A stretch of DNA of 64,000 nucleotides, taken from NCBI GenBank assembly GCA_013388435.1, contig JACAFE010000018.1, positions 13,390 through 77,389 on the forward strand, written 5' to 3'. Shown one piece after another: positions 914 through 47,787 of this stretch; the stretch's first letter is position 1; each line of letters begins with the position of its first letter. Both the position numbers and the translations under genes were made by a program. The notes beneath the pieces were generated by a model. It saw only the letters and a list, made by a program, of their open reading frames with translations, was not told where the DNA came from and did not search any database. The stretch is from Nitrospirota bacterium (GTDB taxonomy: Bacteria > Nitrospirota > Thermodesulfovibrionia > Thermodesulfovibrionales > SM23-35).

Positions 914-943
914 TTAAATATCTATCATTACGGGAGGATGGTT

Positions 944-3900: not shown

Positions 3901-6721
3901 ACCTGTGTCGGGGAATATTATTCTTCAAGCTGAAACTCATGATGAATATGGCAATAAGTCAGTTGCTCACCATGAAATATGGGTTGCAGGAAAAGATGAC
4001 TGGTGGTTTGATGTATCTGACAATGACAGAATAGACCTTCTTCCTGAAAAGAGAAGATATGAACCTGGTGAAACAGCTAAATTTCAGGTCAGGATGCCTT
4101 TTAGAGTAGCAACAGCTCTTGTTAGTGTTGAACGCGAAGGAATAATTGATACCTTTATAAAAAAATTATCCGGTAAATCTCCGATTATAGAAATCCCGGT
4201 AAAAGGTAATTACGCTCCGAATGTATTTATTTCAGCATTAATTGTTAGAGGCAGGGTATCTGAACCGCAGCCAACTGCAATGGCTGATCTCGGAAAACCT
4301 GCTTATAAACTCGGCATTTCTGAAATAAGAGTTGGCTGGAAAGCGCATGAGCTAAAAGTATCGGTTGAACCTGAAAAACCTGTTTATAAAATACGTGAAA
4401 AAACAAAAATTCATATTAAAGTCAGACTTTCTGATGAATCTTTTATGAAAAAACTCTTAAAAGAAAAACTTAAATATGAAGTTGCTATTGCTGCAATTGA
4501 TGAAGGTTTGCTTGAGTTAATGCCGAATCAAAGCTGGAAATTGCTTGAATCAATGATGACACAAAGGGGTTATGAAATACATACAGCTACTGCCCAGATG
4601 CAGGTTGTTGGAAAAAGACATTACGGGCTCAAGTCTCTTCCTCATGGAGGCGGAGGAGGAAGACAAACAATAAGAGAATTATTTGAAACCCTTCTTTACT
4701 GGAATCCGAAGATTGTTCTTGATAAAAATGGAGAAGCAGATGTGGAGATACCTTTAAATGACTCTTTAACTGGATTCAGAATCGCAGCAATAGCATTTGC
4801 CGGCAAAGACTTTTTTGGAGAAGGCGAAACCATTATAAGAACAACACAGGATTTAATGATAATTTCAGGAATTCCTCCTGTAATAAGAGAAGGGGATTCT
4901 TTCAAAGCAAACTTTACAGTTAGAAATGCTTCTGACAGGGATATGAAGATTAGGATAACCGGGAGTATGAAAACAGATACTTCAGGTCAAACTCTTGAAG
5001 AAATCATTGAGAATCTTTCTGCAGGAGAAGCAAAAGATGCTGGATGGGATATTATAGTGCAATCTAATGCTAACAAAATTCAATACGAAATCAAAGCATC
5101 AGAAATTAAAGACAGTTTATCCGACAATATAAATAATGCTTCTGATACTCTTAAAGTTACACAAAAAGTTATTGAAGCAATACCATTGCGGGTATTTCAA
5201 TCAATAATGACACAGGTTGATAAGACATATTCTCTCAGTATAAAAAAACCAGAAAAGGCTTTAACTAACAAAGGTGGTATTTCTTTATCTCTAAGGCCGA
5301 GATTATCAAATGGATTGTCCGGCGTCGAGTGGTTCATGAAACGCTATCCATATACTTGTATGGAACAGAAGGTTTCAAAAGCAATAGCGTTAAGAAATCC
5401 TAAACTCTGGGAAGATGTAATTTCTGAACTTCCTGCACATCTTGATAGCGACGGGCTTGTAAAGTTTTTCCATTTCTGTAGTTCCGGAAGCGATGTTTTG
5501 ACATCCTATATTCTCTCAATTTCAAAAGAAGCTGGACTGGAGATACCATCTGATATTAAAAATAGAATGATTCAAGGGCTCACAGCTTTCATAGAAGGCC
5601 GTATTATCAGGTGGTCTTCATTGCCAACAGCGGATGTTTCAATAAGAAAGATAGGAGCTGTGGAAGCATTATCAAGATGGGGATATGCAAAACCATCTAT
5701 GCTTTCATCTATCACAATTGAACCCAATCTATGGCCTACTTCTGCGTTAATTGACTGGATTAACCTGCTTTTCAGAGTTAAAGGAATTCAGGAGCGAGAA
5801 AAGAGAATTGAACAAGCTTTGCATATTCTAAGAGCAAGAGTAAATTTCGAGGGCACTACATTCGGTTTTTCGACCGAGAAAAACGATTATTTATGGTGGC
5901 TCATGTCATCTCCTGATACAAATGCTGTTAAGACAATTTTGACATTAATCGAATTTAACTTGTGGAAGGATGATATTCCACGATTTACAAAAGGAGCTTT
6001 AAACCGCCAGGTCAGAGGTTTCTGGAATACAACAATTTCCAATTCATGGGGTGTTCTCGCAATGGAAAAATTCTCGGGTAAATTTGAATCAGAAAAAGTT
6101 ACAGGCATTACATACGCCCGTACAAAAGGAGAATATGATTCTATCAACTGGCAGGAAAATCCGGATGGTGGTATTTTAAATTTCAACTGGCCACTTAAAG
6201 AAGATTCCCTGAAAATATCACATGAAGGCACCGGAGCTCCATGGGCAACAATTCATAGCCTTGTAGCTGTTCAGCAAAAAGAAAATGTTTTCAATGGATT
6301 TAAGATTAAGAAAGATATTATTCCCTTAGAACAAAAGAATAAAGATAAATGGGTTAAAGGTGATGTGATTAGAGTAAAACTTGAAATAGATGCACAGACT
6401 GACATGACATGGGTTGTGGTTAATGATCCTGTTCCTGCAGGCTCTACCATACTCAAAACAAGTCTTGCAAGAGATTCGATATTTCTTACAAAAGATGAAA
6501 AACAAAATAACTGGATTTCCCCTGTATTTACAGAACGTGCTTTTGATTCGTTCAGAGCATATTATGAATTTGTGCCAAAAGGAACATGGACTGTGGAATA
6601 CACAATAAGACTCAACAACGAAGGAGTATTTAACCTGCCTGCTACAAGAGTAGAAGCTCTTTACGCACCTGAATTTTTCGGAGAATTACCCAACAAAAAT
6701 ATTACAGTAGAAACTCGATAA
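944..6721 (+). CDS. Bacterial alpha-2-macroglobulin family protein (large periplasmic protease-trap, thioester-containing)
   Basis: ORF 839-6721. The likely true start is ATG 944 (or 938), just after GGGAGG, giving the signal peptide MRYRVLFLFLFFLCLYPLISFA/SSD. Length is ~1925 aa. A thioester motif C-M-E-Q lies at 5357-5368 in the context RYPYTCMEQ, the same CxEQ context as E. coli YfhM-type A2M. Confidence 0.85.
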   Translation: MRYRVLFLFLFFLCLYPLISFASSDSVIEHFSPQGLVKNVRQVSVRFSEKMVSFGDPALTDPFEIRCSEKGRGRWIDNRNWVYDFDRDLPAGIACDFILKNGLKTFSGKQIQGKKLFSFNTGGPSIIEVHPYEGSEYVNEDQIFILLLDAEPLEESVLENAFFAVEGITEKVGVRIIKGREKEDILKTRYRKHDVQMPHMLIQAKQIFPPNVKVQLIWSKNIESPCRMKNEQDQILHFKTRGPFTATFNCERENAKSDCIPLLPIYLSFSSPVPQKFIENIVLKSSDNKIYKPSELDNKQRNDFIYSVTFEGPFPEKTSFVIEIQKDIKDDSGRNLSNIDKFPLTVKTDYFPPLAKFSARFGIIEAIDTVLPVTVRNIEPRLKTRMLQINNDASPVQEIKGSIKNIPPDEEEEIIEWMKKLASAKREKSIFETEKSQKPSQHIGSNIKELDIPKLDGSKSFEVVGIPFKEPGFYIVELESNILGISLLAEEKPLYVPAGALVTNLAAHFKWGRESSLVWVTTLDEAVPVPDADIHIRDCKGKIIWKGKTDKNGIAMINDELPDYNKLPVCPIEINYRDAEQAITSINSGLFVFARKDNDLTFVHSNWDNGIEPWRFNLPEPSYQGPVIAHTVFDRTLLRAGETIHMKHLIRKHATSGFEFLDKNELPKSMIVQHTGSSQRYEFPLKWDENGVALTDWQIPAESKLGSYEVILLKKAIEKPSSRTNVGGYESGDEEYFIPDGWRSGTFRVEEFRVPLMKAILQPPIEPLINASEVNIDIMLSYLSGGGASNTPVKLRTVIQPGQVYFNDYEEYLFSNGEIKEGIKTRTGFVESEDQRSFSKYSIKTQDILLDKTGSSRAVIRNIPKIMQPHDLHAELEFRDPNGEIQTSSIKIPLWNSKVLIGIKPDSWALSKDFFKFSAVVLNINGKAVSRAPVKVELFQKLHYSHRKRLVGGYYAYEHVTEIKRLGSICEGSTDSKGLLICEAQSPVSGNIILQAETHDEYGNKSVAHHEIWVAGKDDWWFDVSDNDRIDLLPEKRRYEPGETAKFQVRMPFRVATALVSVEREGIIDTFIKKLSGKSPIIEIPVKGNYAPNVFISALIVRGRVSEPQPTAMADLGKPAYKLGISEIRVGWKAHELKVSVEPEKPVYKIREKTKIHIKVRLSDESFMKKLLKEKLKYEVAIAAIDEGLLELMPNQSWKLLESMMTQRGYEIHTATAQMQVVGKRHYGLKSLPHGGGGGRQTIRELFETLLYWNPKIVLDKNGEADVEIPLNDSLTGFRIAAIAFAGKDFFGEGETIIRTTQDLMIISGIPPVIREGDSFKANFTVRNASDRDMKIRITGSMKTDTSGQTLEEIIENLSAGEAKDAGWDIIVQSNANKIQYEIKASEIKDSLSDNINNASDTLKVTQKVIEAIPLRVFQSIMTQVDKTYSLSIKKPEKALTNKGGISLSLRPRLSNGLSGVEWFMKRYPYTCMEQKVSKAIALRNPKLWEDVISELPAHLDSDGLVKFFHFCSSGSDVLTSYILSISKEAGLEIPSDIKNRMIQGLTAFIEGRIIRWSSLPTADVSIRKIGAVEALSRWGYAKPSMLSSITIEPNLWPTSALIDWINLLFRVKGIQEREKRIEQALHILRARVNFEGTTFGFSTEKNDYLWWLMSSPDTNAVKTILTLIEFNLWKDDIPRFTKGALNRQVRGFWNTTISNSWGVLAMEKFSGKFESEKVTGITYARTKGEYDSINWQENPDGGILNFNWPLKEDSLKISHEGTGAPWATIHSLVAVQQKENVFNGFKIKKDIIPLEQKNKDKWVKGDVIRVKLEIDAQTDMTWVVVNDPVPAGSTILKTSLARDSIFLTKDEKQNNWISPVFTERAFDSFRAYYEFVPKGTWTVEYTIRLNNEGVFNLPATRVEALYAPEFFGELPNKNITVETR

Positions 6722-30470: not shown

Positions 30471-30782
30471 ATGAATATCTTATTTATTTTAAGCACTGAT
30501 GATGCAGAAAAAATCTATAATGCCATGAGATTGGCAAACATAGCAGTACAAAAAGGTGATGAGGTAAATGTTTTCATGCTCGGGAAAGCAGTTTTATTTG
30601 AACAGATTAATGATGAAAAATTCAATGTAAAAGAAGAAATAGATAAATTTAAAGGCAATATGTATGTCTGAGGAGTTTGCATGAAAGCTCACGGACTTGT
30701 GAGCTCAAAAGTATGTCCAATAGGTTACATGAATGATCTTTATGAGTCAGTAAAAGAAGCTGATAAAATTATTACTTTCTGA
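30471..30782 (+). CDS. DsrE-family small redox protein with in-frame UGA (candidate selenoprotein, U-G-V-C motif)
   Basis: The 66-aa ORF stops at TGA 30669-71. The same frame then continues GVCMKAHGLVSSKVCPIGYMNDLYESVKEADKIITF to TGA 30780-82. Cys-containing ~110-aa DsrE-family proteins have ...C-G-T-C-M-x-A-R-G... at this position, as I recall. AAGGAG precedes ATG 30471. Confidence 0.75.
30686..30705 (+). other. SECIS-like hairpin downstream of UGA 30669
   Basis: AGCTCAC (30686-92) pairs with GTGAGCT (30699-705) as a 7-bp perfect stem. The 6-nt apical loop is GGACTT (starts with GG). The loop begins 21 nt after the UGA. Confidence 0.65.
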
Positions 30783-34821: not shown

Positions 34822-36249
34822 CTAAAAACCTTTTAGAGCAGCACGTGCGAATTCTACAAGCATTGTCGGAAAAACACCTATAATTAACACTGCTGCTGTT
34901 GTAACAGCAAGGGCTAATCCATTTGTAAATGATGTTGTCAAAGGTAGTTCAGTTTTTGGATCCCTCATATACATATACATTACAACTCGCAAATAGAAGT
35001 ATGCTGATATAGCGCTGAATATAACAGCTACAATAACAAGCCATGTGTATCCCGCGTTAATTGCAGCCATAAAAACATATAATTTACCAATAAAGCCTGC
35101 TGTTGGCGGAATTCCTGTCAATGAAAACATAAAAATTAACATCAGTGCAGCAGCTAAAGGGTGTGTTTTTGAAAGTCCTTCATAATCACTTAAATCTTCA
35201 CCTTTTATCCCTTCGCTTCTGAGCATAATAATAACTGCAAACGCTCCGATATTCATGAAAGCATAAATAAACAGATAATTCATCATGCTCGATATTCCTT
35301 CAGAATTAGCCGTAATTATACCGAGTAGAGCATATCCTGCATGAGCTATAGAAGAATAGGCAAGCATTCTCTTTATATTTGTCTGGGATAGTGCAACAAT
35401 ATTACCAACCGCCATAGTAAGAATTGATATGGGAATTAAAATAGTTGCCCAGTCTGCTTTTACTGCTGCAAATGCTATCATAAAAACTCTTCCAATAACA
35501 GCAAATCCAGCAGCTTTTGGTCCAACTGACATGAATGCTGTTATTGATGTTGGTGCACCTTCATATACATCGGGTGCCCACATATGAAATGGAGCAGCGG
35601 CAATCTTGAATCCAAAAGCAACAGTAAGCATTCCAATTGCAAGAAGTAAAGATAGGTTTCCGCTCAAACCTCTTTCTGTTATGAATGTTGCTATCAATCT
35701 CAGATCTGTTGTGCCAGTAAGTCCATATACTATAGAGATACCATAAAGCAAAAATCCTGATGAAAAAGCTCCCAGAAGAAAATATTTAAGCGCGGATTCT
35801 GTTGATTTAAGATTATGCCTTATAAACCCAGCTAATACATAAGTGCTTAATGCCATTAATTCAAGACCAAGGTAAAGTGTTATCAGGTCAGAAGCTGAGG
35901 CCATTATCATCATACCTATAGTTGAAAAGAGTATTAAACTATAATATTCGCCATAATTTACTCTTTCTACAGCAATGTATTTAATCGAAATCAATATCGT
36001 TAATATGACATTTATAAAAAATATGATTTTGAAGAATGTGCTATAACCATCAGCTATGTACATACCCCCGAACGTAGAACCTGTTGTTTTCAGAAGGCTT
36101 AGTGATATTATTGCTGTTCCTGCAATGCTAATTACAGCTACAGCTTCTTTCTTTTTTATAAGCAGATCAAGTAAAAGCACAATTAATGCAAATGCAGTCA
36201 TTAGTATTTCAGGCATTACAGGATTGAGATCAGGAAGGGGGAAATTCAT
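34822..36249 (-). CDS. nuoN: NADH-quinone oxidoreductase (complex I-type) subunit N
   Basis: 475 aa antiporter-like subunit. It is the last gene of the nuo cluster, and its start overlaps the nuoM stop (ATGA). Confidence 0.9.
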   Translation of the reverse strand: MNFPLPDLNPVMPEILMTAFALIVLLLDLLIKKKEAVAVISIAGTAIISLSLLKTTGSTFGGMYIADGYSTFFKIIFFINVILTILISIKYIAVERVNYGEYYSLILFSTIGMMIMASASDLITLYLGLELMALSTYVLAGFIRHNLKSTESALKYFLLGAFSSGFLLYGISIVYGLTGTTDLRLIATFITERGLSGNLSLLLAIGMLTVAFGFKIAAAPFHMWAPDVYEGAPTSITAFMSVGPKAAGFAVIGRVFMIAFAAVKADWATILIPISILTMAVGNIVALSQTNIKRMLAYSSIAHAGYALLGIITANSEGISSMMNYLFIYAFMNIGAFAVIIMLRSEGIKGEDLSDYEGLSKTHPLAAALMLIFMFSLTGIPPTAGFIGKLYVFMAAINAGYTWLVIVAVIFSAISAYFYLRVVMYMYMRDPKTELPLTTSFTNGLALAVTTAAVLIIGVFPTMLVEFARAALKGF

Positions 36250-37787
36250 CTGATTACCTCCATAATATTTTTAGCTATCTGTGCTTCCTGTGCCATTCCA
36301 CCACTATTAACTCTTTCTAAAAGATGTTGCACAGAAGTATGCATGAAGCTTAAGAAAGAATTGGGATAAACACCTATCCAGAATACAAGTATGAGCATGG
36401 GTAACAATGCTATAGTCTCTCTTACATTCATATCAACCAATCCGTGAAGCTTTGGATTTACCTCCATAAAAAACACTCTTTGATATAACCAGAGCATATA
36501 GCCAGCACCTATAATTATTCCGGTGCATGCGAGAACTCCAGCCCATTTATTTGCTGCAAATCCACCTAAAAGAATTAAGAATTCACCAATAAAACCATTT
36601 GTTGCAGGAAGTCCAATCGCCGCCAGAGTAAATACCATAAAAAATGATGAATATATTGGCATTTCTGTAGCAAGTCCGCCATAATCAGCTATTCTTCGTG
36701 TATGTGTTCTTTCATAAACAACTCCTACAGACAAAAAGAGTGCACCTGTTACCACACCATGATTAAGCATCTGGAGTATTCCGCCTTCGACTCCCTGTGT
36801 ATTCAGCGCAAAGATACCAAGTGTAACAAATCCCATATGACTTACAGAACTATATGCAATAAGTCTTTTCAGGTCTGTCTGGCCGAGACAGATAATCGCG
36901 CCGTAAATAATAGCTATAACTGATAAAGTCAGCATTACTGGCGTCATCGCTTTTGATGCTTCAGGAAGTAGAGGCAAAGAGAACCTCAGGAAACCGTAAG
37001 CTCCCATTTTAATAAGAACAGCAGCAAGAATAACCGAACCAGCTGTTGGAGCTTCAGTATGCGCATCTGGCAACCAGGTATGTACAGGCCACATCGGTAC
37101 TTTTACAGCAAAAGCTGCAAAAAATGCCCAGAAAAGCCAGATTTGCATTGTATAAGGATAATGCTTGGTCATCATTGTAAGAATATCGAATGTTTTTCCA
37201 GAATATAAATAAAGTACGATTATTCCAACAAGCATCAGAACGCTTCCGACTAATGTATAAAGGAAAAACTTAATTGCGGCATATACGCGATTCGGACCGC
37301 CCCAGACACCAATAATAAGGAACATCGGTATAAGCATCGCTTCCCAGAAAAGATAGAAAAGAAAGAAATCGAGGGCGCAGAAAACACCGATCATAAAAGA
37401 TGTTGTTAATAATATCGCTATATAAAACTCTTTAATTTTGTTTGTAATCGCTGTCCATGAAATAAGCACGCAAAGAATAGCGCACAGCGTTGAAAGCAGT
37501 ATAAACAGAACGCTTATACCATCAACTCCGAGAAAATAGTAAATATTCCAGTTAGGAATCCATGAGAATCTCTCAACAAACTGCATTTTATGGGTGGTCT
37601 TATCAAAATGAGTAAACAAAGGTATTGAAGCCACAAAAGTCAAAATGCTCGTTCCCAATGCAATCCATTTTGTGAGTGTCTCCCATGATCTTTTGTTAAT
37701 TAGAATTAGAAGTGCGCCCAAAACTGGCAGAAATATAACGGTGCTGAGTATAGGGTAATTCAGATTATTCATTATTACCTGTTCCAT
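36246..37787 (-). CDS. nuoM: Complex I-type subunit M
   Basis: 513 aa Mrp-antiporter-like protein with the WLPDAHTEAPTAGSVILA motif. Confidence 0.9.
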   Translation of the reverse strand: MEQVIMNNLNYPILSTVIFLPVLGALLILINKRSWETLTKWIALGTSILTFVASIPLFTHFDKTTHKMQFVERFSWIPNWNIYYFLGVDGISVLFILLSTLCAILCVLISWTAITNKIKEFYIAILLTTSFMIGVFCALDFFLFYLFWEAMLIPMFLIIGVWGGPNRVYAAIKFFLYTLVGSVLMLVGIIVLYLYSGKTFDILTMMTKHYPYTMQIWLFWAFFAAFAVKVPMWPVHTWLPDAHTEAPTAGSVILAAVLIKMGAYGFLRFSLPLLPEASKAMTPVMLTLSVIAIIYGAIICLGQTDLKRLIAYSSVSHMGFVTLGIFALNTQGVEGGILQMLNHGVVTGALFLSVGVVYERTHTRRIADYGGLATEMPIYSSFFMVFTLAAIGLPATNGFIGEFLILLGGFAANKWAGVLACTGIIIGAGYMLWLYQRVFFMEVNPKLHGLVDMNVRETIALLPMLILVFWIGVYPNSFLSFMHTSVQHLLERVNSGGMAQEAQIAKNIMEVIR

Positions 37788-37816
37788 TGTTCTCCTCTAA
37801 GAGTTCTTAATCCTTT

Positions 37817-39877
37817 TTAACTCAATAAAATTATCAGGGCAACTATAAAAACTGCACCTGCTGCCATAAATATTGCATAATGATGCGCTATACCTGTCTG
37901 AAGTCTTCTGAGTTTCTGGCTAAATATTCCTATCAAATTCGGCACACCATTTACTATACCTTCAATTATCTTAGCATCTGTAAATCCTACAAGAATTTTA
38001 TTCGCAAGTTTAAGAGTTGGCTGCACTATTGTAAGATTGTAAAATTCATCTACATAATACTTGTTGTATAAAATTTTATATAAAAGCGAGAACTGTTTTG
38101 AGATTCTCTCCGGCAAATCAGTTTTCCTGAGATACATAAATGCAGAAAGTCCTAATCCAATGAGCGCTATTGTTGTTGATAGTATCATTACACCCCATTC
38201 CTCTGCGTGAGTAGCGTGGAATTCTGGATGACCCACAACAGGCTGAAGGAAATGAGCAAAATGATTTCCACCTCCGAGTAAAGGCGGAATACCAACCCAA
38301 CCGGCAGCTACCGCTCCAATAGCAAGGAACATTAAAGGTACTGTCATAATATAAGGTGATTCATGTGGGCCATGACCACCATGTGAATCATGTCCCGAAC
38401 CATGTGATGATGAACCATGTCCATGTGGATCGTGACCAGAACTGTGAGAGTCATGACTTGAGCTATGTGAACTGCTGTGTGCATGTGTTGCTGCTTCCTC
38501 TGCCGCAAGCCCGCCGCGATATTCTCCAAAGAATGTCCTGAATATTAATCTGAATGTATAAAAAGGTGTAAAGAATGCTCCAGCAAGTGCAAGTATCCAT
38601 ACAAATTTACCCACACTTGAATGAGAGGCATATGCAGACCATATTATTTCATCTTTGCTGAAGAATCCCGAAAGTCCAGGAAATCCTCCTGCGCTTAAAC
38701 CCGCAATAACGAAAACCGCGTATGTAATAGGCATATATTTTTTCAGTCCACCCATAAATTGAATATTGTTTGTGTGAACTGCATGGATTACACTACCTGC
38801 TGCAAGGAATAATAGCGCTTTAAAAAACGCATGGGTATAAAGATGGAATATACCTGCTGCATAGGCGCCAACTCCACAGGCAAGAAACATGTAGCCTAAA
38901 TGGCTGCAAGTAGAGAAGGCTATTATTCTCTTTATATCATTTTGTGTAATAGCAATCGTTGCCGCAAAGAACATTGTCAATGCTCCGATTATTGCCACTG
39001 TATTCATCGCAATTTCGGAAAGATTGAAAATTGGATTGCATCTCGCAACAAGAAATACACCTGCAGTAACCATTGTTGCAGCATGGATTAATGCGCTGAC
39101 AGGAGTGGGTCCTTCCATTGCATCTGGAAGCCAGACATGTAATGGAATCTGCGCTGATTTTCCGACAGCGCCACAGAATAATAAAAGGGCGATAAGAGTT
39201 GGAAGGTCAACATTAAAGCCAAGAAAATCAACTGTTTTACCAGCAATACTATTAACATTTGCAAAAACATCTGCGTAATGTAAAGTGCCGAATGTAAGAA
39301 ATACCATAAATACGCCGATGCCAAACCCGAAGTCACCGAATCTATTGACTATGAATGCTTTCTTTCCAGCATCTGCTGCAGATTTCTTATTGAAATAATA
39401 TCCAATCAAGAAATATGAGCAAAGTCCCACACCTTCCCAGCCAAAATAAAGCTGGAGGAAATTATTTCCCATTACGAGCATTAGCATGCAGAATGTAAAA
39501 AGATTCAGGTAAGCAAAAAATCTATAATAACCTGTGTCGCCATGCATATAACCTATTGCGTAAATATGAATTAATGTAGCACAGGTTGTAACAACAATCA
39601 GCATAACTGCTGTTAAAGGGTCAATTAAGAATCCTACGCCGACTTTAAATGTGCCTGAAATTATCCATGTATAAAGATCAGCATCAATTATCTTTCCTGC
39701 AAGAACATCCTGAAGTGTCGCAAGTGCGCAGAGCCATGAACCAAAAACAGAAGAGACAGCAAACCAGTGCGCTTTATATCTGGTTACTTCCCTGCCAAGA
39801 AGAATGTTAATTATAAATCCAGTAAGCGGAAGAAAAGGTATTAAAACATGATACCATTGTAATTCCATATTTGCCAT
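37817..39877 (-). CDS. nuoL: Complex I-type subunit L (with His/Ser/Gly-rich insertion)
   Basis: 686 aa with the WLPDAMEGPTPVSALIHAATMV motif and a C-terminal extension consistent with a lateral helix. A low-complexity THAHSSSHSSSHDSHSSGHDPHGHGSSSHGSGHDSHGGHGPHE segment lies at 38360-38488. Confidence 0.9.
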   Translation of the reverse strand: MANMELQWYHVLIPFLPLTGFIINILLGREVTRYKAHWFAVSSVFGSWLCALATLQDVLAGKIIDADLYTWIISGTFKVGVGFLIDPLTAVMLIVVTTCATLIHIYAIGYMHGDTGYYRFFAYLNLFTFCMLMLVMGNNFLQLYFGWEGVGLCSYFLIGYYFNKKSAADAGKKAFIVNRFGDFGFGIGVFMVFLTFGTLHYADVFANVNSIAGKTVDFLGFNVDLPTLIALLLFCGAVGKSAQIPLHVWLPDAMEGPTPVSALIHAATMVTAGVFLVARCNPIFNLSEIAMNTVAIIGALTMFFAATIAITQNDIKRIIAFSTCSHLGYMFLACGVGAYAAGIFHLYTHAFFKALLFLAAGSVIHAVHTNNIQFMGGLKKYMPITYAVFVIAGLSAGGFPGLSGFFSKDEIIWSAYASHSSVGKFVWILALAGAFFTPFYTFRLIFRTFFGEYRGGLAAEEAATHAHSSSHSSSHDSHSSGHDPHGHGSSSHGSGHDSHGGHGPHESPYIMTVPLMFLAIGAVAAGWVGIPPLLGGGNHFAHFLQPVVGHPEFHATHAEEWGVMILSTTIALIGLGLSAFMYLRKTDLPERISKQFSLLYKILYNKYYVDEFYNLTIVQPTLKLANKILVGFTDAKIIEGIVNGVPNLIGIFSQKLRRLQTGIAHHYAIFMAAGAVFIVALIILLS

Positions 39878-39906
39878 ATTCTTATTCCTCTATACTCATT
39901 TGTTAA

Positions 39907-40212
39907 TCAGCCCTGCATCTCTTTGATTTCATCAACATGGGCGGTTGCTCTGTTCCTGAACATTGCAATTACAATCGCAAGTCCGATAGCTGCTTCAGCA
40001 GCAGCGACCGCGATCACAAAAAACGCAAGTATCTGCCCCCTTAAATCCTGTATATAATGACTGAGAGCTATTAAATTAATGTTGACTCCGTTTAACATTA
40101 ATTCTATAGACATTAACATAATAATTATGTTTCTTCTTGAAAGAAAACCAAAGACACCGATTGAAAATACAGCAAGACTTAATAACATATACCAGCTTAA
40201 TGGGACAGCCAT
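39907..40212 (-). CDS. nuoK: Complex I-type subunit K
   Basis: 101 aa, 3 TM, with conserved mid-membrane Glu residues (SIELMLNG, AAAEAAIGLA). Confidence 0.9.
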   Translation of the reverse strand: MAVPLSWYMLLSLAVFSIGVFGFLSRRNIIIMLMSIELMLNGVNINLIALSHYIQDLRGQILAFFVIAVAAAEAAIGLAIVIAMFRNRATAHVDEIKEMQG

Positions 40213-40213
40213 T

Positions 40214-40726
40214 TTAACTCTTAAGCCTCCTTTTTGCGAGGACTATTGCTCCAATCATTGCAACAAGAAGAATCAAAGAAGCAACTTCAAAAGGATAAAT
40301 AAATTCTGTATATAATAATTTACCGAGAGCTTTTATGTGTGTCTCCTGCTTGATCAAATCTATTGAATATTTACCCGGAGGCGCAGCAATAAAAGAACTC
40401 AGTGACATTGAAACAGCTACAAAAAGTCCAAGAGCAAAGGTAAAACCTGTTGGGCCGAATGTAGTATATTTACCTATTGATAATTCTTCACGAAGGTTCA
40501 TCAATAGAACAACAAATAGGAATAAAACGAGTATGCCTCCTGCATAGACTATAACCTGTATAGCAGCCATGAATTCAGCATTTAGAAATAAATATAATCC
40601 TGCTATGTGGAAAAACAGGAGAAGCATCCATAAGACACTATGAACAGGATTCTTTCTTGTTACTACAAGCAATGAAAGAACCACAATTGCAAAAGCAAAA
40701 TATATAAAAAAGCCTATGGATACCAT
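40214..40726 (-). CDS. nuoJ: Complex I-type subunit J
   Basis: 170 aa membrane protein in the expected operon position. It has the typical VIVYAGGILVLFLFV segment. Confidence 0.88.
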   Translation of the reverse strand: MVSIGFFIYFAFAIVVLSLLVVTRKNPVHSVLWMLLLFFHIAGLYLFLNAEFMAAIQVIVYAGGILVLFLFVVLLMNLREELSIGKYTTFGPTGFTFALGLFVAVSMSLSSFIAAPPGKYSIDLIKQETHIKALGKLLYTEFIYPFEVASLILLVAMIGAIVLAKRRLKS

Positions 40727-41250
40727 TATCTTTTACCTCCATACATTGCCTGTCCGGGAGGTGTTCCAAAATCCTCTGACATAGGCCTCCAGAATTTCTT
40801 ATAATATTCTTCGCCTTTTGTCCCTGGCATATATTTATCCCAGTTCGATAATAATTTTTCCTTTGTCATCATTAAATCCTGTTTATTGTAAGCTGAATAT
40901 TCATAATTTCCAGTTAAAGATATGGCTCCATAGGGACAGGCTTCAACACAGAATCCACAATATATACATCTCAGAAGTTCTATCTGATATTTTGTAACCT
41001 GGCCTTTTTCTCTGGTTATGCTTATGCATTGTGAAGGACATATTGTTGCGCATAATCCACAACCAACGCACTTGGCTTTTCCCCCGCGTTTTGAAAGAGC
41101 ATGTTGTCCTCTGAAACCCGGGGCAATCTTTCTTCTTTCATCGGGATATTGTATGGTTACAGCTCTGGAAAACATCCTTCTTAATGTTAAAGCCATTCCT
41201 TTTAGTATTTCTATAAAGGTAATTGTCTTAATGAAATGTTTGAATGTCAC
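40726..41250 (-). CDS. nuoI: Complex I-type subunit I (2x[4Fe-4S], TYKY)
   Basis: 174 aa with a GTG start. The two cluster motifs are CVGCGLCATICP and CIYCGFCVEACP. Confidence 0.9.
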   Translation of the reverse strand: MTFKHFIKTITFIEILKGMALTLRRMFSRAVTIQYPDERRKIAPGFRGQHALSKRGGKAKCVGCGLCATICPSQCISITREKGQVTKYQIELLRCIYCGFCVEACPYGAISLTGNYEYSAYNKQDLMMTKEKLLSNWDKYMPGTKGEEYYKKFWRPMSEDFGTPPGQAMYGGKR

Positions 41251-41251
41251 G

Positions 41252-42310
41252 CTACAATACCTCTTTTAAAATTATTTTTACGAGTCCTGTTAAAAGAATA
41301 TTACCAATTGCGACCGGAATCAAAATTTTCCAGCCTATAGCCATAAACTGGTCATATCTGTATCTTGGCACAGTTGCTCTTATCCAGTAATAGAAAAAGA
41401 AAAATGCATAAACTTTTAATACAAACCATACAACTCCTGGCACATAACTAAGGAATGGGAATATTTTTAAAACATACCATGGTAATGTCCATCCCCCTAA
41501 AAAACATATTGTGCATAATGAAGCCATTAAAATCATTGCTATATATTCACCAAGGAAAAAGAGTGCAAATCTGAAACTGCTATATTCTGTAAAATAACCT
41601 GCAACAAGTTCGCTTTCTGCCTCGGGCAGGTCAAAAGGTGTTCGGTTTGTTTCTGCAACTGCTGCAATTACAAATACAATAAATCCGATAAACTGTGGGA
41701 TAGCATACATGCCAAATATTGATTCACCTTGCGCTCTGATTATATCCGAGAGATTCAATGAACCTGCCATCATCATAACACCAACAAGGCTGAGTCCCAT
41801 TGCAATTTCATAGCTTATTACCTGTGCAGATGATCTAAGACCGCCCATGAATGCATATTTTGAGTTTGACGCCCATCCTGATATAAATATTCCGTAAACA
41901 CCGATGCCTGCCATCGCAAAAATAAATAATAGCCCAACATTAATATCGGCTATGACAAAATTTGCATCAAATGGTATAACTGATAAATTGACCATTGCGG
42001 CAGCCATAAAAATTATTGGAGCGATATAAAATACAACTTTGTCAGCCTGTGCAGGTATAATATCTTCTTTAAAGAAAAGTTTTATACCATCTGCAAAAGG
42101 TTGTAATAATCCATGCGGACCCACTCTCATAGGACCAAGTCTGACCTGCATATGACCTATAACCTTACGTTCAAAATAGGTTGCGTATGCCACATGAAGC
42201 AAGCCAATTGCAAGCACAATCACAATTTTTAAAAGTATAATTGCAACATCAATGCCGAATTTAATTAAAGCATCAACTGTTGAAGGACTTATTACATTTG
42301 CCATATTCAT
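41252..42310 (-). CDS. nuoH: Complex I-type subunit H
   Basis: The ORF extends to 42346, but ATG 42310 (MNMANV...) lies 4 nt after the nuoD stop and is the more likely start. The sequence is canonical NuoH (ERKVIGHMQVRLGPMRVGPHGLLQPFADGIKL). Confidence 0.9.
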   Translation of the reverse strand: MNMANVISPSTVDALIKFGIDVAIILLKIVIVLAIGLLHVAYATYFERKVIGHMQVRLGPMRVGPHGLLQPFADGIKLFFKEDIIPAQADKVVFYIAPIIFMAAAMVNLSVIPFDANFVIADINVGLLFIFAMAGIGVYGIFISGWASNSKYAFMGGLRSSAQVISYEIAMGLSLVGVMMMAGSLNLSDIIRAQGESIFGMYAIPQFIGFIVFVIAAVAETNRTPFDLPEAESELVAGYFTEYSSFRFALFFLGEYIAMILMASLCTICFLGGWTLPWYVLKIFPFLSYVPGVVWFVLKVYAFFFFYYWIRATVPRYRYDQFMAIGWKILIPVAIGNILLTGLVKIILKEVL

Positions 42311-42314
42311 AATT

Positions 42315-43793
42315 CTACCTGTCACACTCTCCAAGAACAATATCAATTGTTCCGATATTAGCTATAACATCAGCAACCAAATGCCCTTTGCAGAGTCTTT
42401 CAAGACATCCTGCGTGAATGAAAGACGGAGACCTTACCCTCATTCTGTAGGGCTTATGAGTACCATCGCTTACAAAATAAAATCCAAGCTCTCCTTTTGG
42501 GACCTCTGTTGCCACATAAACTTCGCCTTCAGGAACTTTTGGTCCTTTTTTAATAAAATCAAAATGTGCAACAAGCGCTTCCTGAGCTTTCTTAAATTCA
42601 TCAGCAACAGGCTGGGCTGAAAGTTCAACAAGTTTCTCTTCAGGCTGTCCCTTGCCTCCCGGGATTATTTTCAAAGCTTTGAATTTACATGTTACAAAAC
42701 ATGTTGCGCATTGCAGACATAAAGATTGATCAATCTTATGTGGTTTCTTCTTCTCTCCTGTTATTGCCTTTGCTGGACATGCCCTTAGACACATCCCACA
42801 TCCTTTGCATGCTTTTTCATCAATAAAATATGCGATTTCATTTACTGGATGTGTGATTATCAACATTTTATCTTTTGGAGGAAGTACAAATTTTGGAGCA
42901 TCAGCCATCACAGGTCCGGCAGGAAGTTTTTCAAGACATTGTCTGATTATTTTTACAGACTGCCTCAACTCGAGCATTCTGCAACGGTATCTATCATATG
43001 TATCGCCTGCGGTGCCTATGGGAACTTCGAACTCAACCTGATCATAGGCATCATATGGCATAAATTTTCTTATATCATACGGGATTCCCGAACCTCTTAA
43101 TGTTGGTCCTGTCATTCCCCAGTTAATCGCTTCTTCAGCAGATATAACTCCAATTCCAACAGTTCTCTTGAGCCAGATTCTGTTCTGATCAATTAAAGTT
43201 TCATATTCGAGAATTCTCGAAGGAAATTCTGCAAGGAATTTCACAAGATGATCTATAAATTCCTGAGATATATCATTTCTAACACCACCAACTCTTGGAT
43301 ATGTAACTGTAAGTCTTGCCCCGCATATCATTTCGAATAGTTCAAGTATCCATTCTCTTTCTCTAAAGCAATAAAGGAATACTGTCATTGCGCCAATATC
43401 TAAGGCATGTGTTGCAAGCCACAATAGGTGGTTTGAAATTCTTGATAATTCACCAACAATTGTTCTTATAAATTTTGCACGGGGCGGGGCTTCTATGCCA
43501 TAAAGTTTTTCTACTGCTACGCAATATCCAATGTTATTGGACATTGCTGAAACATAGTCCATTCTGTCTGTTAAAGGCAATGCCTGAAAGTAACTAAGAT
43601 TTTCACCAAGTTTTTCTATTCCGCGATGCAGATAACCAACATATGGAGTAAGTCTGACAATAGTTTCACCATCTAAATCCAGTACCACTCTTAATACTCC
43701 ATGAGTGGCCGGATGCTGAGGCCCCATGTTAACATTCAGTTCTCTTGTTTCAAAGATTTTTTCTGGCTCCTGCATCTTAATCATGCCATTCAA
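42315..43793 (-). CDS. nuoD: Complex I-type subunit D (49-kDa/Nqo4) carrying an inserted 2x[4Fe-4S] ferredoxin-type domain
   Basis: 492 aa, against roughly 400 aa for typical stand-alone NuoD. The N- and C-terminal parts are canonical ([13 protein letters not shown]...; ...[13 protein letters not shown]...RVRSPSFIH...DIVLGECDR). An extra segment at aa ~311-404 (42582-42863) carries [12 protein letters not shown] and [17 protein letters not shown] lies 5 nt upstream of ATG 43793. Confidence 0.9.
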
Positions 43794-44367
43794 ACTCCTT
43801 CAGTTCCTGAGATCTCTTAATAACTTCAATAAATCCAGGCCAGTCTTTATCACCTTCGTATCCTTTTAAAGGATAATCTTTTCTTAATGGGTGACCTTCC
43901 CAGTCCTCGGGTAATAAAATTCTTCTTAAATCGGGATGCCCTACAAATTGAATTCCAAACATATCAAAACATTCTCTTTCATGCCAGTTTGCACCTGCCC
44001 AAATTGGCACGACTGAGGCAATTTTTGCATCATTTTCAGGAACCTGAGCTTTTATTCTTATTATATGACGGTATTTTGTAGATAAAAGATTATAGACAAC
44101 CTCAAATCTAACTTCTTTCTTATTAGACCAGTCAATAGCTGTTAAATCTCTCAAATGATCAAAACTAAGAACTGGTTCATCATGAAGATATTTAAGAATC
44201 GAGAAGCTTTGGTTTTTCTTTATGATAACAGCAACCTGATCCCTGAAATTGGTAACATCAATTACCTGTTCAGGGAATTTTTCTTTTATCATTTCAGCAA
44301 TTTTTTCCTGCTCTATTCCAGCAGGATGTAATCCAGCTACAACTTCGGTTACCGCCATGGACTCCAC
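43777..44367 (-). CDS. nuoC: Complex I-type subunit C (30-kDa)
   Basis: 196 aa with the [24 protein letters not shown] motif. The start is GTG 44367 or ATG 44358, and it overlaps the nuoB 3' end. Confidence 0.9.
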
Positions 44368-44867
44368 CTCGCCTGTTCTTTTCTTATTTTTTCCTGTAGA
44401 AGCATTACACCTTCAAGAAATGTCTCTGGTCTCGGAGGACACCCTGGTATAAAAACATCTACTGGCAGGAAAGTATCGCATCCCTGCACCGTGCTGTAGG
44501 TCTTGAAAATTCCCCCTGTACATGCGCAACTTCCAACAGAGATAACATATCTTGGTTCAGGCATCTGATCATAAACTCTTCTAACAATCGGAGCCATTTT
44601 CTTAGTAACAGTGCCGGCAATTATAATACAGTCTGCCTGCCGGGGTGAAGCTCTGAAAATAACACCGAACCTGTCGAAATCATAATGTGATGCGCCCACG
44701 GCCATCATCTCAATAGCGCATCAAGCAAGTCCGAATGTCATAGGCCATATAGATGAAAGTCTGCCCCAGTTAATAATTTTGTCGAAAGTTGTAATAATAG
44801 CATTCGGAGGCAGTATCTTAACATCCTGCTGCACCTGGATAAGGCCTATACTTGATGTATCCAGCAT
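44349..44867 (-). CDS. nuoB: Complex I-type subunit B (PSST/Nqo6) with in-frame TGA at codon 49 (candidate selenocysteine; alternatively a nonsense lesion)
   Basis: ATG 44867 is preceded by AGGGGG with a 9-nt spacer. The frame reads [48 protein letters not shown]-[TGA 44723-44721][19 protein letters not shown]...GSCACTGG...PGCPPRPE... to the stop at 44349. The track shows only the 119-aa portion after the TGA. Confidence 0.8.
44688..44723 (-). other. Hairpin that includes the nuoB UGA codon (possible recoding element)
   Basis: On the mRNA, UGAUGCGC (44723-44716) pairs perfectly with GCGCAUCA (44695-44688). That is 8 bp, plus a possible U-G extension. The intervening loop is 20 nt. Confidence 0.5.
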
Positions 44868-44892
44868 CTACAATAACCCCCTGTTAAATATT

Positions 44893-45264
44893 TTAATCCC
44901 AGACAAATGCTTCTTTTTTCCAGGCGTAAATGTATCCGATTAAAAGTATCAAAATAAAGATAACCATTTCGATAAATGCAAATATGCCTATCTTATCAAA
45001 TACAATTGCCCATGGATAAATAAAAATTGCTTCAACATCAAAAACCACGAAAAGCATTGCTATTATATAAAAACGGATTGCGAATCTTGTGCGAGGTTCA
45101 CCTTTCGGGTTAATACCAGATTCATAAGGCATTAATTTTTCAGGATAGGGTTTTTTTGGCCTGAATACTACTCCTATTAACAGTGCGCCAAAACCAAACG
45201 CCTCTGCAACGAGTATAAAAATTAAAACCGGTAAATATTCTGTTGGCAAATACGTTCCAGGCAT
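44893..45264 (-). CDS. nuoA: Complex I-type subunit A
   Basis: 123 aa, 3 TM, with the canonical YESGINP and FDVEAIFIYPWA motifs. Confidence 0.9.
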   Translation of the reverse strand: MPGTYLPTEYLPVLIFILVAEAFGFGALLIGVVFRPKKPYPEKLMPYESGINPKGEPRTRFAIRFYIIAMLFVVFDVEAIFIYPWAIVFDKIGIFAFIEMVIFILILLIGYIYAWKKEAFVWD

Positions 45265-45526: not shown

Positions 45527-46357
45527 ATGTTCAAAATCCTTGAAAAACAATTATTATCTGATGCTGTAGTATTATTTGTAATCGATGCAAAAGAAATAGC
45601 TCAAAAAGCAAAAGCAGGAAACTTTTTTGTGCTTCGCATTCATGAAAAAGGAGAAAGGATTCCGCTTACTATTGCTGATTTTGACAGAGAAAAAGGTACG
45701 ATTACCACTGTTTTTCAAAAGATTGGGAAAACAACCAATGAGCTTGCTTTATTAAAAGAAGGTGATTATATTTCAGATGTAATAGGTCCATTGGGTATTC
45801 CTTCACATATTGAAAAATTCGGCAAAGTAATCTGTGTTGGCGGTGGAGTTGGAATAGCACCTATTTATCCTATTGCACGGGCACTAAAAGAAGCGGGCAA
45901 TACTGTAATTTCAGTAATTGGAGCAAGGATGAAAGAGCTTATTTTCTGGGAAGACAAAATGAAAAGCGTATCGGATGAATTAATAGTTGTAACAGATGAT
46001 GGTTCATATGGGAGAAAAGCTGTTGTTACCGTGCCTGTTGATGAAATTCTGCATGAAGATAAGGAAGTAAAACTTGTTTATGCGATAGGGCCTGCTATAA
46101 TGATGAAATTTGTTTGTATAACTACGCAAAAATATAATGTTAAAACTATTGTCAGCCTGAATTCCATAATGGTTGATGCAACAGGCATGTGCGGAGCTTG
46201 CAGGGTTGAGGTTGCGGGAGAAACAAAATTCGCCTGTGTTGATGGCCCTGAATTTGATGGGCATAAAGTAGATTTTAACCTTTTAATGTCAAGACAGAGA
46301 ATGTATATTGACGAAGAAAAAATTGCTATGGAACATTTTAAATCCGGGGTGAAATAA
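45527..46357 (+). CDS. nfnA: NfnA/SudB-type small subunit (PyrK-like FAD + [2Fe-2S] ferredoxin-NADP+ reductase subunit)
   Basis: 276 aa with a PyrK-like flavin/NAD fold (VGGGVGIAP). The C-terminal cluster motif is GMCGACRVEVAGETKFACVDGPEFDG. AAAGGAG precedes the ATG. Confidence 0.75.
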   Translation: MFKILEKQLLSDAVVLFVIDAKEIAQKAKAGNFFVLRIHEKGERIPLTIADFDREKGTITTVFQKIGKTTNELALLKEGDYISDVIGPLGIPSHIEKFGKVICVGGGVGIAPIYPIARALKEAGNTVISVIGARMKELIFWEDKMKSVSDELIVVTDDGSYGRKAVVTVPVDEILHEDKEVKLVYAIGPAIMMKFVCITTQKYNVKTIVSLNSIMVDATGMCGACRVEVAGETKFACVDGPEFDGHKVDFNLLMSRQRMYIDEEKIAMEHFKSGVK

Positions 46358-47787
46358 TGGAAGAGAAAAAACAGAAAAATAGAATTAAAATGAGAGAGCA
46401 GAATCCAATTGAAAGAGCAAAAAATTTTAATGAAGTGCCTTTTGGATATTCTCCTGAAGAGGCAATGGAAGAAGCTTCACGGTGTTTAAATTGCGTAAGA
46501 CCAACCTGCCGGGAAGGATGCCCTGTCTCAATTAATATCCCTGCATTTATTAAGTTAATTAAAGAAGGAAAATTTATAGAAGCAGCATGGAAAATAAAAG
46601 AAGAAAATGCAATGCCAGCTGTATGTGGAAGAGTCTGCCCGCAAGAGATACAATGCGAATCGAGATGCATTCTCGGAAAAAAAGGTGAGCCTGTTGCAAT
46701 TGGTAATCTTGAAAGATTTGTTGCTGATTTCGAACGTGAAAGCGGCGAAATTCAAATACCCGAAAAACCCAAACCCACTGGCAGAAAAGTTGCTGTAATA
46801 GGCTCTGGTCCCGGCGGGCTTTCATGCGCTGCAGATTTAATAAAAGAAGGGCATCAGGTTACATTGTTTGAAGCATTGCACAAACCAGGAGGTGTTCTTA
46901 TATATGGGATACCTGAATTCAGATTGCCAAAGGTTATAGTCGAAAAAGAAGTTGAATATATAAAAAAGCTTGGCGTCGAACTCAGACTTAATTCAGTCAT
47001 AGGAAAACTTTTCACAATAGATGAACTTATGAATGAACAGGGTTATGATGCCTGTTACATTGGAGCAGGCGCTGGTTTGCCTGTTTTTCTCGGAATTCCA
47101 GGTGAAAATCTGAATGGAATTTATTCAGCGAATGAATTTCTTACAAGAGCAAATCTTATGAAAGCATATCTTTTCCCTGAATATGATACCCCTATTAAAA
47201 GAGGGAAAAGTGTTGCAGTATTTGGTGGTGGAAATGTTGCGATGGATGCTGCAAGGGTTGCTTTGCGTCTCGGCTCCGAAAAAGTCTATCTAATTTATAG
47301 ACGCTCTGAAGAAGAAATGCCCGCAAGAAAAGCAGAAATTCATCATGCAAAAGAAGAAGGGATTGAGTTCATGCTTCTTACCGCTCCATTAAAATTCATA
47401 GATGATGGCAAAGGAAATGTTTGCGGTGTTGAATGCATTAAAATGGAACTCGGAGAGCCCGATGCTTCAGGAAGAAGAAAACCTGTACCAATAAAAGGAA
47501 GCGAATTTCAGCTCGAGATAGATGTTGCGATTCCTGCGATTGGGACGCGGTCGAATACATTACTTACCAGCACCATACCTGACCTTGCTTTAAACAGGAA
47601 AAATTACATAATCGCTGATCATGAAACAGGAATGACATCAAAGCCCGGCATATTTGCAGGAGGGGATATTGTCACAGGCGCTGCAACAGTAATTCTTGCT
47701 ATGGGCGCAGGCAGAAAAGCAGCTAAAGGGATTAATGACTATCTCAAGTGGAAATTCTGGGACACGAGAAAATTTATATCAAGTTAA
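46357..47787 (+). CDS. nfnB: NfnB/SudA-type large subunit (GltD-like NADPH-dependent oxidoreductase with 2x[4Fe-4S])
   Basis: 476 aa. The N-terminal Cys clusters are CLNCVRPTCREGCP and CGRVCPQEIQCE. The two dinucleotide folds are VAVIGSGPGGLSCA and VAVFGGGNVAMDAA. Confidence 0.75.
   Translation: MEEKKQKNRIKMREQNPIERAKNFNEVPFGYSPEEAMEEASRCLNCVRPTCREGCPVSINIPAFIKLIKEGKFIEAAWKIKEENAMPAVCGRVCPQEIQCESRCILGKKGEPVAIGNLERFVADFERESGEIQIPEKPKPTGRKVAVIGSGPGGLSCAADLIKEGHQVTLFEALHKPGGVLIYGIPEFRLPKVIVEKEVEYIKKLGVELRLNSVIGKLFTIDELMNEQGYDACYIGAGAGLPVFLGIPGENLNGIYSANEFLTRANLMKAYLFPEYDTPIKRGKSVAVFGGGNVAMDAARVALRLGSEKVYLIYRRSEEEMPARKAEIHHAKEEGIEFMLLTAPLKFIDDGKGNVCGVECIKMELGEPDASGRRKPVPIKGSEFQLEIDVAIPAIGTRSNTLLTSTIPDLALNRKNYIIADHETGMTSKPGIFAGGDIVTGAATVILAMGAGRKAAKGINDYLKWKFWDTRKFISS

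Follow-up and report, generated by a model that had tools for sequence, protein, structure and literature searches.

A proposed selenocysteine codon at the first cluster N2 ligand of NuoB in a Nitrospirota bacterium, and its recurrence among anaerobes

The stretch of 64,000 nucleotides (nt) analysed here (contig JACAFE010000018.1, assembly GCA_013388435.1, positions 13,390 to 77,389 of the forward strand; hereafter the window) is derived from a Nitrospirota bacterium and was found to contain a nuo operon for complex I. In its nuoB gene, the first cysteine (Cys) codon of the tandem pair that ligates the iron-sulfur (Fe-S) cluster N2 was replaced by an in-frame UGA. This UGA is very probably a functional selenocysteine (Sec), or Sec/Cys, recoding site that yields full-length NuoB. 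The UGA was found to be conserved, purifying selection was found on both of its sides, a hairpin that covaries with codon usage was present downstream, and Cys was found at the same column in orthologues. The gene and its N2-ligand codons were located as follows.

44349..44867, minus strand: nuoB, complete coding sequence of 172 codons including one UGA, plus the TAA stop (sequence, translation, hidden Markov model (HMM) and structure alignment)
44721..44723, minus strand: in-frame UGA, proposed Sec codon U49, equivalent of C85 of Yarrowia NUKM
44718..44720, minus strand: Cys50 codon TGC, second of the tandem N2 pair, between the TGA and the internal ATG
44526..44528, minus strand: Cys114 codon (GSC-ACTGG), third N2 ligand position, equivalent of C150 of Yarrowia NUKM
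44439..44441, minus strand: Cys143 codon (PG-C-PP), fourth N2 ligand position, equivalent of C180 of Yarrowia NUKM

The minus-strand frame was found to start at the ATG at 44867 and to run through MLDTSS...IWPMTFGLA and the TGA, followed by the segments GSCACTGG, PGCPPRPE and RWSPWR, to the TAA at 44351-44349. It contained no frameshift and a single in-frame TGA (44723-44721), whereas calling of open reading frames (ORFs) breaks it into a 48-amino-acid and a 119-amino-acid ORF. The read-through product, in which U was replaced by Cys for the HMM comparison, was found to match Pfam Oxidored_q6 PF01058 (E 4e-31, 107.9 bits, cut-off 27), the NCBIfam NuoB model NF005012 (250.9 bits, cut-off 116) and TIGR01957 (238.9 bits, cut-off 142.7), and it aligned over its whole length with NDUFS7/PSST/Nqo6 chains from solved structures of complex I (E ~1e-64). 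In the alignment to these chains the TGA column was the first Cys of FGLACCA(V/I)EMM, so that the position and the uninterrupted frame given in an initial annotation of this DNA were both borne out. By the offsets to chain 6gcs_K (query 24-165 to chain 60-202), U49, C50, C114 and C143 corresponded to C85, C86, C150 and C180 of Yarrowia NUKM. These four residues are the N2 ligands, and C85 has the greatest mobility in the tandem pair and adjoins the quinone-ligating Tyr of NDUFS2 (PMC8042128). All four N2-ligand positions were found to be occupied in nuoB, the first by UGA and not by a Cys codon. An extra Cys codon was also present at 44520-44522 (minus strand), two residues past the third ligand, where NuoB of the window's clade contains GSCACTGG in place of the usual GSCANGGG.

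Comparison of the window's nuoB with eight other Sec-type lineages gave a dN (nonsynonymous divergence) of 0.05-0.2, whereas the synonymous sites were saturated (dS >1.6 or undefined). Where computable, dN/dS was 0.02-0.06 both in the 44 codons upstream and in the 123 codons downstream of the TGA; the decay in relatives that the initial annotation had proposed to look for was not found in these lineages. The four codons from the TGA to the internal ATG were found to remain C-A-I/L-E while being synonymously variable, and this segment must therefore be translated. It contains Cys50, which was conserved among orthologues despite TGC/TGT synonymous variation and which, lying between the TGA and the internal ATG, is translated only upon UGA read-through. 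A Cys codon was found at the TGA column in orthologues, which is the classical Sec/Cys pattern, and the suggested alignment of orthologues accordingly places Cys codons and TGA in one column. TGA terminated 9 of the 51 long ORFs of the window (36% G+C); it is thus an ordinary stop, as had been stated, and the codon is not reassigned. In-frame TGAs resembling recoding sites were found at two places in the window, namely in nuoB and in a DsrE-like gene (TGA at 30669).

An identical 119-amino-acid fragment was found to be encoded on three independent contigs. Its 90%-identity cluster contained several other 119-amino-acid fragments and 48-amino-acid N-terminal fragments as well as full-length Cys-Cys proteins of 172/173 amino acids, and diverged pairs of 119- and 48-49-amino-acid fragments were present across dozens of contigs. 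In the DNA retrieved for three diverged fragments, a 49-amino-acid ORF ended exactly 12 nt ahead of the 119-amino-acid ORF in 20/20 further contigs, which came from different samples. The TGA was found at the identical codon in all four DNA lineages, surrounded by many synonymous differences, and in more than 20 independent assemblies.

The breadth was surveyed in one genome per GTDB species with the degenerate DNA pattern F-G-L-x-TGA-C-x-[hydrophobic]-E-M, which demanded TGA at the Sec column. True in-frame-TGA NuoB genes (FGLA-U-CA[IL]EM) made up about 113-115 of the 120 species-genome matches listed, hence at least that many, and five were chance matches. Among the matches listed, the carriers were mostly Nitrospirota (Thermodesulfovibrionales, 'Nitrospiraceae', Ca. 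Sulfobium) and Thermodesulfobacteriota/'Deltaproteobacteria' (Syntrophaceae, Desulfobacterales, Syntrophorhabdus, Ca. Tharpella, Thermodesulfobacteriaceae, Caldimicrobium), followed by two metagenome-assembled genomes (MAGs) of Chloroflexota and one of Udaeobacter. The cultured isolate Thermodesulfatator autotrophicus S606 was found to carry a TGA-containing nuoB. Three MAGs were each found to contain two Sec-type nuoB genes on different contigs (loci L071 and L103 in JACREW01, L061 and L140 in CAMTVO01, L033 and L117 in CAYQJS01), which suggests two Sec-dependent Nuo-type complexes per genome. The operon types were mixed, some being of 11 subunits as in the window, whereas locus L120 contained nuoA-B(Sec)-C-D-E-F-G and is a canonical NADH-oxidising complex I with Sec-NuoB; confinement of Sec-NuoB to 11-subunit, non-NADH complexes was rejected on this ground. 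Sec-NuoB is not confined to this genome; it is a family of wide occurrence in which Sec and Cys have often been interchanged, and it is encoded in 11-subunit as well as canonical 14-subunit operons. The Udaeobacter locus (L100, DATBDJ010000013.1, a Verrucomicrobiota soil MAG) was the sole match from its phylum among those listed, and its TGA could be an error, a pseudogene or a case of an unusual SECIS (selenocysteine insertion sequence). A separate metagenome scan, the pattern of which contained 'ACC', retrieved almost only Cys forms, and these served as controls and not as a census.

The segment of nt 13-48 after the UGA was folded for 116 distinct Sec-type sequences, and nearly all of them were found to contain a single hairpin with an apical loop that starts at nt 24-29 and contains G. 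Frequent apical loops were CGGGA, AGUUC, GGA, AGGU, GUA and GUG. The stems differed completely among subfamilies whereas complementarity was retained, as in the following examples.

5′ arm UGACGA, loop CGGGA, 3′ arm UCGUCA
5′ arm GGCUGCU, loop GGA, 3′ arm AGCAGCC
5′ arm GGUUGCC, loop AGUAU, 3′ arm GGCAACC
5′ arm GGCUACU, loop AGUUUA, 3′ arm AGUAGUU
5′ arm GGCUGC, loop AGGU, 3′ arm GCAGCC (several clades)

The last of these resembles the minihelix of E. coli fdhF, GGUUGCAGGUCUGCACC. The bSECISearch model places a G in the apical loop and the loop about 16-37 nt from the UGA, and the window's nuoB was found to contain such a hairpin just downstream of the UGA (predicted, loop at nt 25). Hairpin stability was compared with 200 randomised versions per sequence, in which the protein was kept and synonymous codons were resampled by the usage of the same gene; the mean z was -1.19 in Sec forms versus -0.29 in Cys forms, and control windows of equal size elsewhere in the Sec genes gave -0.07, +0.05, -0.65 and -0.21. 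When a SECIS-like filter (loop start at nt 22-30, loop of 3-7 nt with G, at least 6 pairs, -6 kcal/mol or lower) was applied, 89% of Sec forms were retained, compared with 40% of Cys forms and with 26% of the Sec sequences after randomisation. By raw minimum free energy of the hairpin, Sec and Cys forms were not distinguishable (p = 0.24), a result of the higher GC content of the Cys controls.

Codon usage followed the stem. Sec clades with the peptide AVGAS always contained GCC GTN GGC GCA TCA, and those with AAGAS always contained GCC GCA GGT GCG AGC (six genomes, including the cultured isolate), each set forming a stem of its own. In Cys orthologues, these peptides were encoded by the stem-breaking GCG..TCC, GCT..GCC TCG or GCA GCA GGA GCA TCC, and the AAGAA-peptide Cys orthologues L144 and L145 contained one central mismatch that was absent in the Sec form L108. 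Two Cys lineages, L224-L228 (e.g. L226:3001-3522, L228:1064-1582), with TGT/TGC at the Sec column, were found to retain the exact Sec-form hairpin GCC GTG GGC GCA TCA; they are probably recent TGA-to-TGY (Sec-to-Cys) conversions with a 'fossil' SECIS. The downstream hairpin is more than a by-product of the peptide.

Two mutually exclusive structures were found at the window's own UGA, in which nt 1 is the U of the UGA.

44688..44707, minus strand: hairpin B, proposed SECIS, nt 17-36, UGAUGGCC-GUG-GGC(G)CAUCA
44715..44723, minus strand: 5′ arm of helix A, UGAUGCGCU, nt 1-9, which includes the UGA and pairs with 44696-44688

Helix A was found to contain 9 bp between UGAUGCGCU (nt 1-9) and GGCGCAUCA (nt 28-36), with one U.G pair (-12.5 kcal/mol), whereas hairpin B contained 8 bp with one bulged G (G31), a 5′ arm at nt 17-24 (UGAUGGCC) and an apical loop that starts at nt 25, GUN in the subfamily (-8.6 kcal/mol). 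Both use the 3′ arm GGCGCAUCA. The 10 distinct subfamily sequences were compatible with helix A, which was 98.9% paired in the subfamily and was not found outside the window's subfamily, and hairpin B was 100% paired in the 10. Only 5 of 55 four-fold sites at conserved residues were invariant in 12 distinct subfamily genes, and four of the five were the third positions of codons +7, +9, +10 and +11, all of which lie in the stem of hairpin B, whereas the loop codon +8 was freely variable. C24, in codon +7, lies outside helix A, and the stem codons of hairpin B were altered in several Cys orthologues. In the E. coli system, the first dozen or so downstream nt are inside the ribosome when the UGA is in the A site. 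By analogy, helix A would have to melt at that stage and hairpin B could still form. Hairpin B is favoured over helix A as the functional element and likelier SelB target because of the four-fold invariance, its position, which is that of the hairpins in the other Sec-NuoB subfamilies, the expected A-site melting of helix A, and the loop of the DsrE-like gene, which also starts at nt 25. Helix A might have arisen by chance from the near-repeat UGAUG(C)GCC, or it might be a conformer that exists before decoding. The helix around the UGA reported in the initial annotation does exist, with 9 bp and not 8, but it is not the sole structure and the non-classical geometry noted for it does not extend to hairpin B (44707-44688), which has that of a classical bacterial SECIS.

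The capacity of the organism to decode Sec was approached through the second recoding candidate of the window.

30471..30782, plus strand: DsrE-like selenoprotein gene, motif YV-U-GVC, TGA at 30669-30671; PF02635, E 6e-11
30686-30705, plus strand: hairpin AGCUCAC-GGACUU-GUGAGCU of the DsrE-like gene, loop start at nt 25

The DsrE-like protein (PF02635, UxxC) is a listed selenoprotein family (2026 review), and the Sec signature ascribed earlier to this gene was thereby substantiated. Its presence is indirect evidence of Sec decoding by the organism, and the Sec machinery of this genome is inferred. Ordinary gene callers would miss or truncate the DsrE-like gene. Mukai et al. (PMC5389517) reported genomes of Thermodesulfovibrio, Nitrospirae and deltaproteobacteria with all of selABCD, and tRNASec is present in Thermodesulfatator indicus.

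The mechanism proposed is that the UGA at 44723-44721 would be recoded co-translationally as Sec, with the hairpin at 44707-44688 (nt 17-36 downstream, within the coding sequence) acting as a bacterial SECIS that, with the UGA in the A site, would bring SelB.GTP.Sec-tRNASec to the ribosome. The resulting NuoB of 172 residues would assemble N2 on Cys50, Cys114, Cys143 and Sec49, the selenolate of which would replace the thiolate of the first residue in the strained tandem pair. The dependence on SelB, the insertion of Sec rather than Cys and the ligation of Fe by Se are what we infer from the gene. As residue 49 would lie between N2 and the quinone-binding Tyr of NuoD, a change in N2 potential, in protonation or ligand lability, or in oxidative robustness is likely on speculative grounds.

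Several observations weigh against Sec insertion at this UGA or against hairpin B as its signal. Sec-NuoB is predicted, at the protein level, from DNA. Scanning for tRNA genes revealed no tRNASec in the window or in any fetched locus, and no sel genes were found among the size-compatible ORFs of the window and just beyond its left end, while a look-up at the right end yielded no record; these ORFs were rejected as Sec machinery, being a histidine kinase, a sigma factor, a HlyD-like protein, a peptidase, ProRS, GreA and others. The lineages of UGA-NuoB can carry selC* tRNACys(UCA), which reads UGA as Cys (PMC5389517). The hairpin filter was passed by two fifths of the Cys forms too, and the sequences are phylogenetically related, so that the p-values (Mann-Whitney p ~3e-13 for the difference in z between Sec and Cys forms) overstate independence; the direction was consistent across all tests. 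At the canonical position, the hairpin of the AVYASHNDL subfamily (L028, L029, L062, L067, L084, L118, L120, L127), which includes the 14-subunit operon L120, was only weak (-5.5 kcal/mol, loop CGUGUAU), and no convincing downstream hairpin was found in the single Udaeobacter match L100. For the window's subfamily, RNAalifold prefers the UGA-containing helix A over hairpin B. In the covariation proposed as a check of that helix, pairing was kept in the subfamily and no double-sided compensatory change was found in any pair of helix A or hairpin B among the 10 distinct sequences; covariation within the subfamily does not discriminate the two. The single-sequence fold of the TGA region was no better than shuffled sequence (z = +0.55) and was not used as evidence.

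Members of the AVYASHNDL subfamily also contained a strong GCCAUC-GARAU-GAUGGC hairpin at nt 7-23, nearer to the UGA than a classical SECIS. An Rfam scan of the window gave no match; Rfam has no general bacterial SECIS model.

The UGA could instead be recoded through a SECIS/SelB-type route mainly or facultatively as Cys, by selC* tRNACys(UCA) with or without a dedicated SelB*, so that, at any rate when selenium is limiting, the mature enzyme would contain N2 with the usual Cys-Cys pair. This is unlikely, although the selC* tRNACys has been reported in Thermodesulfovibrio, Nitrospirae, Thermodesulfobacteria, deltaproteobacteria and Smithella, which are the taxa of UGA-NuoB, UGA-to-Cys decoding has been shown in E. 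coli with an engineered CysRS variant (PMC5389517), and a selenium-independent fallback would benefit a core respiratory enzyme. Every selC*-containing genome also has a complete Sec apparatus (PMC5389517), and exclusive Cys decoding would make the upkeep of TGA and hairpin pointless, as one mutation leads to TGC/TGT and has repeatedly happened. Still less probable, at a very small chance, is that the TGA is a true stop, in which case nuoB would give rise to two polypeptides or to nothing more than the C-terminal fragment of 119 residues from the Met at 44708. Gene callers and NCBI annotate this split (e.g. HZV46672.1, 119 amino acids), and an ATG-ATG is present 12 nt after the TGA; but the internal ATG is not preceded by a spaced Shine-Dalgarno sequence, the four codons from TGA to ATG are conserved as C-A-I/L-E with synonymous variation and so are translated, the 48-codon upstream part is under purifying selection and in frame with the rest, TGA and neither TAA nor TAG occupies this column throughout, albeit in matches to a pattern that demanded TGA, and a fragment from the internal Met is without both tandem N2 ligands, as the initial annotation had pointed out.

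Read-through independent of a SECIS, with Trp or Cys inserted by near-cognate wobble, or a local change of the genetic code is slightly more improbable again. UGA is the leakiest stop codon, but with Trp at an Fe-S ligand position the cluster would be lost, simple leakiness does not predict a conserved, codon-covarying downstream hairpin specific to TGA forms, and a code change is opposed by the 9 of 51 long ORFs of the window that end in TGA. A sequencing or assembly error or a decaying pseudogene is effectively refuted, even though the source is metagenome-derived and a single-base change from TGC/TGT to TGA would suffice: the TGA recurs across four lineages in more than 20 independent assemblies, and also in over 100 genomes at the species level, one of them from an isolate, which answers the doubt about error raised at the outset, and dN/dS is low on both sides of the TGA and the remaining operon is intact. 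Recoding as Sec, or as Sec/Cys, remains the preferred explanation, and all checks of the initial annotation that were carried out favour it.

The window's NuoB is like canonical NuoB/Nqo6/PSST (NDUFS7) in family, operon position, four-ligand N2 motif and strained tandem pair near the quinone site. It differs in containing a UGA (Sec) for the first tandem Cys and a hairpin in the coding sequence 17-36 nt downstream, and the window's clade differs further in the extra Cys of GSCACTGG and in a partner NuoD with an inserted 2x[4Fe-4S] domain. With bacterial genes that contain a SECIS within the ORF, such as E. coli fdhF, it shares a UGA at a Cys position, a hairpin immediately downstream and a G-containing loop about 20-26 nt after the UGA; unlike the listed bacterial selenoproteins, its host would be a complex I subunit, and its SECIS is predicted from sequence. 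The DsrE-like UxxC selenoprotein belongs to an unrelated family with the same spacing from UGA to loop (nt 25). The selC* tRNACys/SelB* system (Mukai et al., PMC5389517) occurs in the same taxa and would act on the nuoB UGA and hairpin, but inserts Cys and not Sec.

In the energy metabolism of anaerobes, Sec also takes the place of a Cys that ligates a metal or lies near a cluster in [NiFeSe] hydrogenase, HdrA, MvhD/FrhD, GlpC-like proteins and (2Fe-2S)-binding CU/GxUC proteins, and binding of metals or Fe-S clusters is predicted for about 20% of selenoprotein families (2026 review). None of these precedents is a complex I Fe-S ligand. NuoB and NuoD are evolutionary relatives of the small and large subunits of [NiFe] hydrogenases; in [NiFeSe] hydrogenase the large subunit contains the Sec, as a ligand of Ni, whereas the Sec proposed for NuoB would be in the small-subunit homologue, at a [4Fe-4S] cluster. 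The nuoB product is not a member of the [NiFeSe] small-subunit family (NCBIfam NF045520, 25.6 bits versus a cut-off of 470), and the NCBIfam NuoB models are generic only. No Nuo, complex I, quinone oxidoreductase or PF01058 entry was present in a review of May 2026, which covers more than 110 selenoprotein families of prokaryotes, in agreement with the initial annotation, in which NuoB was not known to be among the described families; the nearest name was NqrE (PF02508), which is unrelated to NuoB. NuoB was likewise not listed in a 2022 review nor in Haft's 2022 preprint, and no description of Sec-NuoB was found in full-text literature searches, the scope of which did not extend to subscription literature and supplementary tables. 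The combination of NuoB identity with an ordinary bacterial selenoprotein-gene architecture appears to be undescribed.

The operon and its neighbours were found to contain the following features.

34822..45264, minus strand: nuoA-B-C-D-H-I-J-K-L-M-N operon, 11 subunits, no nuoEFG (gene tables, HMM)
44893-45264, minus strand: nuoA, directly before nuoB
43777-44367, minus strand: nuoC, directly after nuoB
42315-43793, minus strand: NuoD, 492 amino acids, with an inserted 2x[4Fe-4S] ferredoxin-like domain (insertion ~42675-42830)
45527-47787, plus strand: divergent gene pair immediately upstream of nuoA (DHODB_Fe-S_bind/NAD_binding_1; Fer4_20 + Pyr_redox_2)

All nuo genes are on the minus strand, with nuoB between nuoA and nuoC, and the ten remaining genes (A, C, D, H-N) were uninterrupted, as had been noted. 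The NuoD insertion was found as Fer4 matches at about residues 322-373 that split the two halves of the 49-kDa domain, and it was kept in close relatives of Sec and Cys type alike (NuoD of 488-490 amino acids). A coupling of this insertion to Sec-NuoB was rejected, as it was absent in 75/77 other Sec operons and present in Cys-type close relatives; it is a clade feature unlinked to Sec, and may be an extra electron-entry point for the NuoEFG-less complex. The gene pair at 45527-47787 was syntenic in all close relatives (L001, L004, L014, L224, L227, L230) and, being NfnAB/GltD-like, may serve the 11-subunit complex as an NAD(P)H-linked input module. Elsewhere in the window, and unrelated to nuoB, an ORF of 1960 amino acids was present at 839-6721 (plus strand), the counterpart of which in L231 contained bMG3, MG2, A2M_BRD, A2M and bMG10 domains (bacterial alpha-2-macroglobulin).

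NCBI names the truncated 119-amino-acid piece 'NADH-quinone oxidoreductase subunit NuoB' (HZV46672.1), and the N-terminal piece of 48/49 amino acids is an unnamed ORF. The splitting or truncation of nuoB by annotation pipelines in more than 100 species is a systematic mis-annotation, as a result of which complex I can be mistaken for broken in metabolic reconstructions from MAGs of Nitrospirota and Thermodesulfobacteriota.

A selenolate is softer and more acidic than a thiolate and is easier to re-reduce once oxidised. At N2 it could, speculatively, shift the potential or its pH dependence, ease reversible ligand dissociation and guard against irreversible oxidation. The tandem-Cys ligation of N2 is central to the unresolved coupling of complex I, and a natural Sec-for-Cys variant would be a ready-made experiment: paired Sec and Cys orthologues of up to ~86% identity exist, the Sec form is present in a cultured thermophile, and 77Se (I = 1/2) would provide a spectroscopic handle on N2. 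The selenoproteome would gain a central and widespread respiratory enzyme, and Sec would be extended to the role of a [4Fe-4S] ligand. If the reading is true, complex I would here have its first natural case of an Fe-S cluster with a selenium ligand, and N2 potential, proton coupling or ligand lability would be altered by Se at that position of the tandem pair which is most mobile and close to the quinone. The carriers are anaerobic and mostly sulfur- or sulfate-metabolising or syntrophic, which agrees with general selenoprotein ecology (2026 review). It is rather likely that many anaerobes run a complex I with a selenolate-ligated N2, kept by selection for low-potential (menaquinone or reverse) electron transfer. 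Their respiration would then be selenium-dependent, possibly with a Cys fallback via selC* tRNACys, and a selenium requirement or benefit would be implied for the respiration of subsurface and sediment anaerobes.

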